NCBI GenBank assembly: GCA_000934665.2
Contig: JYFJ02001344.1
Span: 1 to 64,000 of the forward strand
Reading direction: 5' to 3'
DNA length: 64,000 bases
From: Catajapyx aquilonaris
Taxonomy: Eukaryota
Each line of letters opens with the position of its first letter. Position 1 is the stretch's first letter. The notes beneath the pieces are model-generated. The model did no database searches and was not told the origin of the DNA. It saw nothing but the letters and a program-made list of their open reading frames with translations. Below are positions 23,377 through 48,890 of this stretch, one piece after another. The position numbers were made by a program, and so were the translations under genes.

Positions 23377-24759
23377 ATGGAGTCGTTCCTGTTGGCATGC
23401 AAAGTCGGGAATGTGCAGACGGTGCAGACGCAGATGGAACTGGCTGGAGGTGTCCATGCGGCGATGCAGATTGCGGATTGGGTCGGGTGCGGAGGGCTTC
23501 ATTATGCCGTGACTTGGGGTAGCGAGGAGGTCGTTTCCTTCCTGTTGCGTCAAGGGTGGCCTGTGGATCACCGCGGCGGACAGAAGCAGATGACCCCGCT
23601 GCACTGCGCAGCCAAATTCGCACGCCCGATGATGGTGCTCATGCTGCGTACGATGGGTGCAGACACAGTGGCTAAGGACGCAGACGGTAAGACTCCGGTG
23701 GATCTGGCCCGCGAAAGTGGGTGTTTCGAAGCGATCCATGCCATGGAGGTAAGCTCTGAAAATTATTAGCAACATATGCTACAATTTTAGGCACAGATTT
23801 CAGAAGTTCAGCGGTCGCCTGCGGTCGCTCCAGTGCCTACAAACTGTCCGGCACCACGACAAAATTCGTGCATTACCCAAATAGTATGGGAGTGGTACAA
23901 CAGCGAACGGTGGGTCGAGTACACATCGGGTATCAACTCATGCGCAATTGAAGCGCTGTACATGACAAACCCATCCGGACTTGTCGCCTTCACGTCCGCC
24001 AACGGTAGGCACTACCAGATAAATCTCTGCACAAAGATTCAGACCAACATGGAGACGCAGCATAACCGCGAGGTACGCCGCACCGAGCTTATCACATACA
24101 CCAAACCGCCCTCGGACAACTATCCAGACAACTGGGAACCCATGACAGATGGACACAATCTTCAAGTTTTTATAGTTGCTCAAGGTTCGCCCGAGTTCGC
24201 CTCAATCGCCCAGCACTTCCGGGGTCAGAATGTGAGCCTGGTATTCCGCATCCAAAACAAGCATCTTTGGCAGACCTATCGGCTGAAGTGGGAGATGTGC
24301 CGGTTGGACGAACGCCGGTTGTTCCACGGGACATCCCGGATGTCCGTGAAAAGCATTGCGGAAAACAACTTGGACTGGCGGTTGTGCGGGAACAAAGTGG
24401 GGACGGCATACGGACAAGGAGTGTACTTTACATCGGACGCTGCGATGGCTGCCAGGTAAGATCGTACTTGCTCTTTATGTAGTGGTGAAAATTAATGGAT
24501 CGCCACCTTTACATGAAGCTTGTTTTAATGGTCTTTAATATGCAGGTACTGTCCGGACAAGCCCAAAGTAATATTCTGCTGCCGGGTCATGATCGGCAGT
24601 AAGGTCAAAGGCACCAGCTTGATGCAACGGCCGCCGCCTAATCCCGCCACAGGTCGACTGTACGACACAAGCGTGAACAACATCGAGGATCCGTCCATAT
24701 TCGTCAAGTACTACGACAACACGTTTGTCCCCGAGTATCTAGTCCAGCTGGACAATTAG
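23377..24759 (+). CDS. Ankyrin-WWE-PARP catalytic domain protein (PARP11/12-type mono-ADP-ribosyltransferase)
   Basis: Exons 23377-23748, 23791-24455 and 24546-24759 join in frame. Ankyrin motifs (GLHYA, TPLHCAA, GKTPVDLA), WWE (WEWYNSERWVEY...YQINL...QTNMETQHNREVRR) and ART core (LFHGT, YGQGVYF, YDTSVNN, PSIFV, PEYLV) with an H-Y-I triad. Confidence 0.9.
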
Positions 24760-24907
24760 CAGGTGCGATTGAACGCCAATAACAATATTAAGAGTACAAA
24801 ATGCGTGATTTTCCAGGGACGGACTGCGTTTATTACATGATTATACACCCCCATCACCACAACCGGGTGTATAATAATGTAAGATGCCTTCCATCCGACG
24901 CCTCGGC

Positions 24908-25558
24908 TCATTTCTTCTTCCTGAACGAGCAGCCTGCAACGAGACAACATGTTAGCGATGAACTTTTTTATTCCAACGAGTGACCGCATGTACCTTCGAC
25001 TAAGTGAGCACGTCCCCCTGTGGGTTCGCACAGCACACGGTCGCAGCTGCCGCATCGAACCTTTTCCTGGGCGTGGCTGAACATGGTCGTGATCTTGTAA
25101 CAACCTGTAACAACCCCGCAATTGTAATGTAATGAGGCCAAAATTTTTAATTAAATGGGGGATACAAATTACCGGGACACTTCACGTCCAAGAAGTACGA
25201 GTTGGGATGCTGGACGAGCCGCTTCTTCTTGTGCTTACGGCGTTCCAGCTCCGGTTGCGGGTGAAGGAAATCGACAGCCAACTGCGGGCAATATAATTGT
25301 TGTAATACACACGCACAACATGTAATATAATTAATAAATAATTAGTAATATTTTTTTTAAATACACAAAATGAAAAATAGATTGGAAAGCTTATGTCTAG
25401 AGTCCCGGCATGTTGTTCCGGATGGTTTTTCCGGGTGTTTTTTTTGGCCCGATTTTTCGCAGGCTTTTGATGCGCCGGATTGTTCCCCGTCCGGGGAGGA
25501 TCTTTCGTCGCGTCCGGGCACCTTGATTACGCGGGTAGGAAGCGGAACTCACCGGCAT
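24908..25558 (-). CDS. RPS27: 40S ribosomal protein eS27 (divergent copy), 83 aa, 4 exons
   Basis: Exons 25553-25558, 25173-25281, 24994-25104 and 24908-24933 give [83 protein letters not shown]; pyrimidine TOP/TCT-like tract (ctccttcttttgtctct) ~40 nt upstream. Not in the ORF track. Confidence 0.95.
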
Positions 25559-45503: not shown

Positions 45504-45595
45504 CCGCCGGGGGTCGACCTGGCACTTCACTACAGCCAGGCTCGGCCCGCCTCTCCTTCCATGGAGGGAGGGGGGACACAATACAAATCAAAAGA
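45504..45595 (+). pseudogene. U2 3' fragment (stem-loop IV + downstream hairpin)
   Basis: ccgccgggggtcgacctggc-acttcactaca-gccaggctcggccc + cctctccttccatggagggagggg matches 43151-43220; a further partial copy is at ~45622-45656. Confidence 0.85.
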
Positions 45596-45956
45596 CAATA
45601 TCTAACACTATAGTCTCGGTTTGCCCGGGGCGGCCATGCTCGGCTCGCCTCTCCTTACATTCCTTCAATTCAGGAAAAACTCCGACCGCAACTTCCATAA
45701 TTTAATATCCTGTAGAGTGTAGACCGATTTGCGGTTCTCGATAAGATAACTCTAAACTCTCCAGCTATCGCATGGAAGTCATATGCAATTTTTTTGCCTG
45801 AACTTGGTAAGAAGTAGCTGTGCCTGGCTGCGAGCAGAATCGACAACAATCTTATCAGCCTGTTGATCCCTTTTAAAACGTGAGTATTAACCCTTAACCA
45901 CCAACGTGAATCTGCCATATACATGTTCTTCGTTATTATACTTGTAGGGAATAATC

Positions 45957-48890
45957 ATGGCAGCTGCAACAGCCGACACCAGCCTTGCGGATTTGCACAA
46001 CGCTGCGGAGAATGGATCTCTGACATTGGTCCAGATGTTGCTGGACAAAGGACAGTACGTGGACTCCCGTACCAGGAATGGAGTGACTCCACTGATGGTC
46101 GCTTCCAGACGTGGTTGGATTCCAGTGTGCGAGGAATTGGTCAAGAGAGGGGCAAGGGTGAACCTGGCTTCCACTGACCAGGACAAGACTGCCCTGCACC
46201 AGGCAGCGGAATTCAACCACCTGCAGGTGTGTCGCCTTCTGCTGGAGGAAGGGGCAGATCCAATGGTGAAGACCAAAGTGGGGGACACCCCTCTGCACAT
46301 GGCAGCGGAGGCTGGGAACGTTCTCGTGGGGAGGCTTCTCTTGGAGTGGGGGGCAGATCCGGAGGACAGGAATGGGGAGAGAAAGACACCTCCGGGGGTG
46401 GCAGTCATGAAGGATCGGAAGGAGATGGTCAAGTTTTTCATAGGAATTTCTGAACAGATTCACGTCATGGCTGCCATGGGAAGGGAAGATGATGTCAACA
46501 AGTTGTTGGCAGAAAGGGGAGAGAAAGAGGTGAACAAGAGGAACGGACATGGGGAGACTCCCCTGATGGTGGCGTGTCGGGCCAGGAAGGTGGGCGTCTG
46601 TCGGTCCATACTGGACGCGACTGGACAGGAGGAGGTGGACGCGAGGGACGTGGAGGGAATGACAGCCCTTCACTGCTCTGCCAGGAGTGGTCTGGTCCAG
46701 ACGTGCAGACTTCTCCTGGACAGAGGGGCCTCCGTGGACACCCGAACCGTCCACACTGGCCACACCCCACTCCACTTGGCCTGCATGTTTGGACATCTGG
46801 ATGTGTCCAGTCTCCTCTTGTTGGAGGGAAAGAGTGACCCCCAGGCCACGGACAAGGATGGGGCCACACCTGCCTCTCTGGCCCTTCTCAAAAATCATGT
46901 AAAGGTGCATCGATTCATCTTGGATCACCTGAAGTGGACTCATGGCGTGCAGGCTAGGTGAGTGCATGAAATCCGTTCACTTGGCACGTTAATTGTAGGT
47001 CATATGCCGTTGAAAAATTATTGCACTTTTTTGTCATTGGGAAATTCATCGATATGTTATTGTGGCTTTGTCAAGCCTATTCCAGTGATTGGCGATTGAC
47101 TAAGCCACAATAACGTTCGTTGACCTAGGGCTGACAATATTGTTGGGCGGATACACAACCCACAATATGTACAGTGGCACTTCACTGATTCTAACAACTC
47201 ATTAAACCCAATCCCTCAGGGCCGAGGTCAACAGCGCGAAAGAAACGACAGTGGTGTCCAGGTACATGTTGGACTACAAGCAGGAGACCATCTTGGGTGT
47301 GGGATCCTTTGGAGTAGTGGCCGAGGCTGAACTGAAGCTGGCAGAGGCACGTTACGCAGTGAAGAGGGTTCCTCTGCCTCAAGATGACCAACTGAAGGGG
47401 TTAATTCTGAGGGAGGTAAAGGCACTGGCTCGACTGGACCACGATCATGTCGTGAGGTTCCACCACGCCTGGACGGAGAGGACTCCCTGTTGGGTCCATA
47501 AGGAGTGGGACGCCATGACGGCCATATGCTCCAACAGGTCTGGTCCAGAGGCGAGGGAGGCCTCAGAGGCAGCATCCATCTACTTCACCGCTCCCATGAC
47601 TGTGACAGGACCCACAACTGACTTCCTCTTCATGCAGCTCGAACTCTGTGAGAAGGAAACCCTAGGACACAAGATGGATGGGGGAAGATTGAACCTGGGA
47701 AAGTCCGCCAAACTCACCCTCTTCAGTCAAATTGCATCCGCTGTTTGTTACATCCACGCGCAGGGACTGATCCACCGAGACCTGAAACCTTACAATATTC
47801 TTTTTGCCCTGGATGGAAAGAATGTCAAGATTGGAGACTTTGGTTTGTCCACCTCCCTCTTGGGCAAATCTCCCTCCCAACAGCCAGTCCATGGTGACTA
47901 CTCCCAGGAACCAGTTGTTCCTTCACCACCAGAGATGACTGCAGGTATTGGGACCAAACTCTACTGCTCCCCAGAGCAGATGAGAGGAAGAGAGTACGGT
48001 CCCAAGACTGATGTTTATTCCATGGGCTTGATATTGTACGAGATGTTGTCCCCATTTGGAGCGCACAAGGAGGGGAGGGCACAGGCCTTCACCTTACTCA
48101 GGAATGGGGGCCATTTCTCACATGGTTTTACACGCGTCCATGTAAACGAATCACTTCTAATCCAGCAAATGATACGAGATGTGTCCACAAGAGTGTCCTC
48201 TTTTGACGTGGAGAAAGAGATCCTGTTGTCCCTGGATATGAAGAAAAAGGTAATAAGGTTTAATATTATTAGTGATAACTTAACGCTGATGGTGCTGTTC
48301 CCTTGCAGAACATATTAATGTTCATGGAGGCCTGCAAGGAAGGAAGGCTGGAAGAGGTGAAGAGGATGGTGGAAGAGGATGGAGGTGGAGTGGAGATGTG
48401 GATGGAGGTGAGGGTTAAGTATGGACGGAGTGGACTTCACTGGGCTGCATGGAGCGGAAGGGAAGAGGTGGTCGCCTTCCTGCTGGGTGCAGGATGGCAT
48501 GTCAACCAGGAAGACAATACAGGCACAACACCCCTCCATCGAGCAGCAGAAGGAGGACACCCTTCCACGTGCCAGACACTGATCAGGGAAATGGCGGATG
48601 TGGGGGCAAAGAACAAGCTTGGGAACCAGCCTATCCACCTCGCTTCTTGGAGAGGCCACGTCCAGGTTGTGGAGTTACTCCTGCAGGAAGGGGCAGGGCT
48701 GGAGGACAAAGGATGGGGGAATAGGACCCCACTCCACTTGGCGGCATGGTTCGACCAACCCCAACTGGTTCACTTCCTTCTATCCAAGGGAGCGGACAAG
48801 ACGACCAAGGACAAGTATGGGAAGACACCCCTTGAACTCGCAAAGGAGAAGGGATATGATAATGTAGTCATACTTTTGAATGTACAGTAG
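45957..48890 (+). CDS. Ankyrin repeat - eIF2alpha-kinase-family domain - ankyrin repeat protein, 870 aa, 3 exons
   Basis: Exons 45957-46957, 47220-48249 and 48309-48890 join in frame (phase 2, phase 0; 2613 nt). About 9 N-terminal and 5 C-terminal ankyrin repeats; kinase GVGSFG, YAVKR, LREVKALARLDH, LFMQLELC, HRDLKPYN, DFG, GTKLYCSPEQ, DVYSMG. Confidence 0.88.

Follow-up and report, generated by a model that had tools for sequence, protein, structure and literature searches.

We analysed a 64,000-nucleotide window of the Catajapyx aquilonaris genome (assembly GCA_000934665.2, contig JYFJ02001344.1, positions 1 to 64,000 of the forward strand; "the window" below always means this whole stretch) and found that two of its genes carry specifically homologous ankyrin-repeat exons on different enzymes. 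The first gene encodes a PARP of the mono-ADP-ribosyltransferase (mono-ART) type, and the second encodes a protein kinase of the eIF2-alpha type. As judged from their sequences, the two exons are very probably specific paralogues, that is, one ankyrin cassette reused on both enzymes. A preliminary description of the locus had proposed that a mobile ankyrin sensor was shuffled onto the two enzymes and that both copies might sense the same ligand. Our analysis supports the homology, which is specific and involves a whole exon in both genes. It does not support a mobile sensor or a common ligand, and it leaves the accompanying argument from intron phase void.

Homology of the two ankyrin exons

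In both genes the cassette makes up one whole coding exon. PARP exon 1 (23377..23748, + strand) contains the start codon and a cassette of 124 amino acids (Ank_2, 1.1e-12), while kinase exon 3 (48309..48890, + strand) contains a cassette of 193 amino acids and the stop codon (Ank_2, 8.7e-49). Both peptide strings quoted in the preliminary description are present in the window where it had placed them. In the PARP cassette, two full repeats (R1, R2) lie between an N-cap repeat (R0) and a partial C-cap (R3). The kinase cassette consists of R0, R1-R4 and the C-cap R5, with R2-R3 being extra relative to the PARP copy. MAFFT aligns the two at 43% identity (53/124 identical columns) and covers the PARP exon end to end, with a single block gap opposite kinase residues 67-134, which correspond to two repeats. 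PARP R0-R1 are paired with kinase R0-R1, and PARP R2-R3 with kinase R4-R5. By BLASTP, the identity of the two cassettes is 36%.

Summed scores reward repeat number, and the comparison was hence re-scored per single stretch. The ankyrin background comprised the top 150 proteins by summed score out of 1.84 billion and 17 word-search matches. Among 159 ankyrin targets, the kinase C-terminal exon ranked first by its best single stretch against the PARP cassette (56.1 bits, next target 45.1 bits). For the N-terminal ankyrin array of the kinase, encoded by exon 1 and distinct from the shared cassette, the best stretch reached 25.4 bits. When 170 proteins (353,049 residues) were scored by stretch, giving 2,429 and 2,926 stretches, the N-terminal 66 and 68 residues of the two cassettes came out as reciprocal best hits (36.9 versus 24.2 bits and 38.0 versus 27.1 bits). 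The best matches are also colinear when all 18 repeats of the window are compared without gaps. PARP R1 pairs with kinase R1 (16/33 identical residues, next best 11), R2 with R4 (15/33, next best 12), and R3 with R5 (9/24, next best 7).

The first full repeat, R1, contains residues that are rare in ankyrin repeats at large. Both cassettes have a glycine at position 7 (G7), where G is found in 0.4% and P in 58% of 1,111 background repeats, and a tryptophan at position 28 (W28), where W is found in 0.3% and A in 68%. E17 (10.9%) and F22 (11.3%) are also common to R1 of both cassettes. At least three of these four shared non-consensus residues were found together in 0/1,111 background repeats. 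In addition, both cassettes have a 4-residue insertion in the R0-R1 linker. Among 286 matched PDB sequences, the five best gave no single stretch above 18.0 bits, and wherever one of their alignments spans the linker it needs a 4-residue gap, whereas the kinase cassette needs none there. Reciprocal best matching over a large ankyrin background, combined with shared rare characters, is what we would expect of paralogous cassettes. The reciprocal N-terminal halves, the rare residues and the linker insertion also bear out the earlier claim that the two exons share more than generic ankyrin features. Not every feature listed there is non-generic: the "GAD...KD..GKTP..LA" end is ordinary C-terminal consensus, and residues 1-40 taken alone are undistinctive.

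The resemblance could instead reflect the ankyrin consensus and chance, with no specific common origin, and a number of observations weigh on this side and against a specific relationship. A library-wide search with the PARP cassette returned, as its best 150 proteins ranked by summed score, giant multi-repeat proteins with 28-39% identity, and the 36% BLASTP identity of the two cassettes falls inside the range of these unrelated ankyrin proteins. A shifted register of the two cassettes is nearly as good (37% by BLASTP, 46.3 bits). By summed score, a 169-amino-acid designed consensus ankyrin protein tops the kinase cassette (111.2 versus 100.8 bits), and the kinase cassette taken whole finds closer matches in generic arrays (95.4 bits) than in the PARP cassette. 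The phmmer margin of R1 alone is small (20.9 versus 18.3 and 21.9 versus 20.6 bits), and 6/1,111 background repeats match kinase R1 with as many identities as PARP R1 does. Residues 1-40 of the PARP cassette score only 8.3 bits by themselves (rank 2 of 110 targets), and for residues 67-124, with their consensus-like C-terminal end, the margin is only 36.7 versus 31.2 bits. As many as 19,172 library proteins reached E<=1e-10 against the PARP cassette, and better single-stretch matches may exist beyond the re-scored best 150. The chief caveat is that the background represents life at large, and the same features could be widespread among the ankyrin genes of this organism itself. Against consensus and chance stand the reciprocal N-terminal halves with their margins of 11-13 bits, the colinearity of the repeats, two shared residues each found in less than 0.5% of the background, the absence from that background of repeats with three or more of the four shared residues, and the common linker insertion. 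Moreover, the two exons align over their full span, first residues to last, and the other ankyrin array of the kinase scores far lower. An explanation by consensus and chance is already disfavoured, and we consider it quite improbable.

We found two copies of the cassette only, which does not support the view that the module is mobile. Besides the kinase gene's own N-terminal exon, there is no third ankyrin exon in the window. A word-index search with the PARP cassette found generic ankyrin proteins only (7 matches among 176 candidates), and so did a profile of the two N-terminal halves (10 matches among 210 candidates). P0280, the sole word-search match that contains a kinase, was rejected as it is not of the eIF2-alpha type (33% identity over 114 residues around the catalytic loop).

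The PARP and kinase genes

The window reads as animal DNA with short introns. The two cassettes belong to intact three-exon genes that lie on the + strand, 21 kb apart. The PARP gene (23377-24759) encodes 416 amino acids in the order ANK-WWE-PARP, and the kinase gene (45957-48890) encodes 870 amino acids in the order ANK10-kinase-ANK5. Reading of the sequence and a script check gave GT..AG boundaries for 4/4 introns and one terminal stop codon closing each gene model. At each of the 4/4 junctions, the donor is canonical, the acceptor is rich in pyrimidines and the phase preserves the frame. The Pfam Ank_2 scores of the three ankyrin exons (48.7, 186.7 and 164.5 bits) are all above the cut-off of 27.3 bits.

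According to Pfam, PARP exon 1 contains ankyrin repeats only, and it lacks CCCH zinc fingers. The predicted intron 1 (23749..23790, + strand) is 42 nucleotides long (GAG/GTAAGC...TTTTAG/GCA, phase 0) and has an in-frame stop codon inside. Exon 2 (23791..24455, + strand) encodes a WWE domain (6.1e-12) and then the beginning of the PARP catalytic domain (2.7e-13), with the motifs LFHGT and GQGVYF. It is followed by intron 2 (24456-24545, + strand; 90 nucleotides, GT..AG, phase 2) and by exon 3 (24546..24759, + strand), which holds the end of the catalytic domain and then the stop codon (PARP12 match, 4.6e-09). The DPSIFV segment of exon 3 is identical to the PARP12 segment, and we take its isoleucine to be the third residue of the H-Y-I triad of mono-ARTs. 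Exon 2 matched 22 PDB sequences, with PARP12 the closest (1.6e-13), followed by PARP15, ZAP, PARP14 and PARP10. In the ESM Atlas, the closest clusters for this exon are PARP11 and PARP12-like with a WWE+PARP composition, and ankyrin is present in 0/8 of the family sets shown. The gene combines a WWE domain with a PARP catalytic domain that has a putative H-Y-I type triad, as in PARP12-like mono-ARTs.

Kinase exon 1 (45957..46957, + strand) was overlooked in the preliminary description. It contains the start codon, 333 codons and 2 nucleotides, and encodes about ten ankyrin repeats (Ank_2, 9.9e-56). It joins exon 2 in frame, in phase 2, through the donor TAG/GTGAGT and a 262-nucleotide GT..AG intron. 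Exon 2 (47220..48249, + strand) encodes a complete protein kinase domain (Pkinase, 1.2e-40). Its catalytic set is complete (GVGSFG, YAVKR with the VAIK lysine, HRDLKPYN, GDFG and GTKLYCSPE), the activation-loop threonine before SPE is present, and there is an insert of roughly 45 amino acids between N-lobe strands. The predicted intron 2 (48250..48308, + strand; 59 nucleotides, AAG/GTAATA...CCCTTGCAG/AAC, phase 0) separates this exon from the cassette.

The closest solved chains of the kinase exon are PERK (5e-52), GCN2 (4e-40), HRI (5e-36) and PKR (6e-35). Among distinct PDB sequences, the first 19 matches all come from eIF2-alpha kinases (112-180 bits), and the next family reaches 73 bits. 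Together with the motifs, these nearest solved chains place the predicted protein in the eIF2-alpha kinase (PEK) family. Pfam and the solved chains hence confirm both enzyme identities given in the preliminary description. We also examined a maximum-likelihood tree of 28 rows, which included fish PKR/PKZ, animal PERKs, one GCN2 and protist relatives, with HRI not sampled. The kinase forms an end branch of this tree, 3.95 changes per column long, and falls into no supported group. Pfam found no luminal, dsRBD, Z-alpha, RWD or HisRS domains in the kinase gene. Orthology to PERK, PKR or GCN2 was rejected, as the kinase is outside every supported set of the tree and has no matching sensor domain. 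Overall, the kinase appears to be a very divergent, lineage-specific and fast-evolving protein that belongs to the eIF2-alpha family but to no sampled subfamily.

We looked for relatives with the same architecture. The ESM Atlas returned only generic kinase clusters for the kinase exon (all 0.98-0.99). Ankyrin repeats were found in 0/120 listed long kinase homologues (120 of 443 word-index matches, length window 602-2000 amino acids), and ankyrin-bearing kinase relatives in 0/39 metagenome loci (tblastn, E<=1e-5). A kinase search of viral contigs revealed no relative, and a full-text search of open-access papers did not reveal any description of an ankyrin-bearing eIF2-alpha kinase.

One could argue that the gene models are artefacts, in which one ankyrin exon or both would be small genes of their own, or dead fragments, next to the enzyme exons. 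Among sequencing runs, the locus was found in four DNA runs of one study and in no RNA run, and the exon joins are predictions from sequence features, which also counts against our interpretation. The frame of PARP exon 1 continues for 7 codons to a stop, making a stand-alone protein conceivable; there are Met codons at the 4th and 6th residues of the kinase cassette; and the frame of the kinase exon reaches a stop unspliced. However, all four junctions are canonical and preserve the frame, with pyrimidine-rich acceptors, and an unspliced reading would put one stop codon within a few bases of the next start. The WWE and kinase exons have no suitable start codons of their own. If PARP exon 1 is removed, the WWE domain is left with no upstream start codon, and in the kinase exon a Met lies only 9 residues ahead of the glycine loop. 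The frames are all intact and the catalytic motifs are present. Such an artefact therefore seems to us very unlikely. We infer that both enzymes are catalytically active; their substrates and any role in stress or immunity are likewise presumptive.

Origin of the cassettes and divergence of their surfaces

The PARP cassette extends from the start codon to a phase-0 donor, and the kinase cassette from a phase-0 acceptor to the stop codon. Classical exon shuffling implies same-phase introns on both sides of the exon in both hosts, whereas we found one intron boundary for each cassette, at opposite ends. Insertion of a symmetric exon into an intron does not fit this arrangement. The introns joining the cassettes to the enzyme exons are indeed both of phase 0, as had been reported, but the argument built on this is empty, with the intron following the cassette in the PARP gene and preceding it in the kinase gene. 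No intron position is common to the two cassettes, and their matching phase is therefore uninformative.

At the DNA level, the two ankyrin exons share two short colinear stretches (47 nucleotides at 74.5% and 32 nucleotides at 75%). Because similarity is down to these two stretches, the duplication breakpoints are gone and the ratio of nonsynonymous to synonymous rates (dN/dS) is out of reach. Both cassettes more probably stem from an old duplication of an exon-sized segment caught at a gene end, with the kinase copy carrying two extra internal repeats. Since then, the scaffold, including the rare framework residues and the linker insertion, would have been kept, and the usual target-contact positions would have diverged. 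It is plausible that this was an old local duplication, given a nearby pair of SPOP-like genes with a similar depth of divergence.

We next consider the surface of the cassettes. As the target-contact set we took six positions in each repeat, those at which the libraries of designed ankyrin binders vary. The set is borrowed from such libraries, and ankyrin domains can bind via other faces, which limits the argument from surface divergence and has to be counted against our interpretation. The target-contact positions are identical at 4/17 sites (0/6, 2/6 and 2/5 by repeat) versus 36/73 for the framework positions (16/27, 13/27 and 7/19). At the level of aligned residues, this divergence is easier to reconcile with paralogues that have different partners than with a common ligand.

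The proposal of a common ligand has a wider form, in which the cassettes are a shared sensor or adaptor that brings the same ligand or partner to both enzymes, and translation arrest and mono-ADP-ribosylation are the two arms of one stress or immune system. PKR, PARP12 and ZAP act in antiviral defence of vertebrates, and the window contains what appear to be true paralogous cassettes on two enzyme types with such relatives. The very long branch of the kinase is of a kind often seen in fast-evolving defence genes. RNase L offers a precedent for an ankyrin ligand sensor on a kinase-fold chassis, its ANK repeats probably being a secondary gain (PMC10400998). On the other hand, the few identities at target-contact positions, with none of six in the best-conserved repeat R1, do not favour the same ligand. 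The kinase copy has two extra mid-array repeats, and these give its binding groove a different shape. In the 1,200 bp ahead of each gene, shared k-mers do not exceed the level of shuffled sequences (0 shared 11-mers versus 0.95 expected). The two genes are separated by those for MRPS27, cyclin B and a PLD6-like protein, and no third partner domain was found in the window or among the 210 candidates of the N-terminal-half profile. We consider a shared sensor unlikely. In its boldest version, the 870-amino-acid protein would be a ligand-gated translational off-switch with an RNase L-like layout, in which an ankyrin sensor array precedes a dimerising kinase fold, and with eIF2-alpha phosphorylation as its output. 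The PARP12-like copy would couple mono-ADP-ribosylation to the same upstream signal or scaffold, the two forming an invertebrate defence or stress module that passes one signal on to two effector chemistries. This version strikes us as hardly likely at all.

Taken as a whole, the explanation that we prefer, and hold to be reasonably probable, is that the paralogous cassettes arose by an old duplication, kept their scaffold and now each serve their own enzyme. Each cassette would then have an ordinary ankyrin role, as a protein-interaction or regulatory domain that targets or gates the enzyme it is attached to. In the kinase, the ankyrin arrays may stand in for the sensor domains of PKR, PERK, HRI and GCN2. 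By analogy with the known behaviour of the family, they might govern dimerisation and autophosphorylation, the steps by which eIF2-alpha kinases are activated. In the PARP, the cassette may serve to direct the enzyme, a mono-ART whose WWE domain reads ADP-ribose, to its substrates.

Neighbourhood, known relatives and biological meaning

Three housekeeping-type genes lie between the PARP and kinase genes: MRPS27 (32480-33603, + strand), a cyclin with a Cyclin_N domain (cyclin B; 34552-35055, - strand) and a PLD6-like phospholipase D gene (38461-39234, + strand). The pair are therefore not adjacent members of one cluster. The kinase gene is flanked by two single-exon SPOP-like genes with MATH, BTB and BACK domains (39903-40910, - strand, and 50173-51246, + strand). 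They are on opposite strands, and their products are 40% identical over about 335 amino acids, a sign that local duplication took place here long ago. An exact look-up of three start variants of the SPOP-like proteins found 0/3 in a collection of 15 billion proteins; the proteins of this genome are therefore apparently outside the protein library. A Tc5-type transposase remnant with an HTH_Tnp_Tc5 DNA-binding domain (3.7e-08) is located between the PARP gene and MRPS27 (28613-29227, - strand).

The window also contains repeats. A short interspersed element is present in three copies (43191-43215, 45544-45568 and 48928-48952, all on the + strand) that have a common 25-base core with 0-1 mismatch (chance expectation 0), and one copy begins about 40 bases past the kinase stop codon. 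Long periodic peptide repeats appear in several frames at 29600-30020 and at 49100-50090, the latter just past the kinase gene; they hint at tandem repetition of the DNA. There are 5 N bases in the window, and an X in one translated frame near 36100-36200 probably marks a small assembly gap.

Among known enzymes, the PARP is most similar to the PARP12/PARP11 group (clade 3 PARPs), with which it shares a WWE domain followed by a PARP catalytic domain, and the closest chains are those of PARP12. Unlike PARP12, PARP7 and ZAP, which have CCCH zinc fingers, it has the ankyrin cassette at its N-terminus. Ankyrin repeats N-terminal to a PARP catalytic domain are also found in tankyrases. However, the PARP of the window has a WWE and no SAM domain, its catalytic domain is nearest to those of PARP12, 15, 14, 10 and ZAP, and 0/22 of the solved sequences matched by exon 2 are tankyrase catalytic chains. 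The excerpted text of Perina et al. 2014 (PMC4245714) reports several independent origins of ANK+PARP combinations. That excerpt describes them for clade 1 and tankyrases, and an ANK-WWE-PARP12-like protein is not among the cases described there (PMC4245714).

The kinase has in common with PERK, GCN2, HRI, PKR and PKZ the kinase domain with complete motifs and the N-lobe insert that is usual in the family. It differs from these eIF2-alpha kinases in having ankyrin arrays on both sides as regulatory regions. The family diversifies by sensor swap on a constant kinase chassis, with a dsRBD in PKR and a Z-alpha domain in PKZ. The preliminary description drew a comparison with RNase L, which as to layout is apt for the N-terminal array of the kinase but not for the shared cassette. 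Both proteins begin with some nine to ten ankyrin repeats and continue with a kinase-fold domain. In contrast to RNase L, Pfam finds no KEN/ribonuclease domain in the kinase of the window, and its C-terminus is ankyrin. The RNase L kinase is of the IRE1 type and a pseudokinase, whereas that of the window is motif-complete and of the eIF2-alpha type. Furthermore, the array shared with the PARP is the C-terminal one, whereas the likeness to RNase L lies in the N-terminal array. According to PMC10400998, RNase L probably originated from a PK+RNase protein that acquired ANK repeats, and acquisitions of ANK repeats in other lineages were independent.

The ANK10-eIF2-alpha-kinase-ANK5 architecture is the most interesting object of the locus. 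eIF2-alpha kinases are defined by their sensor domains, and to our knowledge only a handful of sensor types have been described: for heme, uncharged tRNA, endoplasmic reticulum stress, double-stranded RNA and Z-nucleic acid. A motif-intact member of the family with ankyrin arrays as its only other domains would be a further sensor type, and could open the way to some unknown signal of stress or infection in a non-model animal. The same logic would apply to the PARP12-like enzyme, a chassis with a new targeting domain. The reuse of the cassette is real, but nothing points to a common binding target of the two copies. If they did share a partner, translational arrest and ADP-ribosylation would be linked in one pathway, and the present data lean against this. 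The shared cassette itself is a concrete, datable example of protein assembly from exon-sized pieces.

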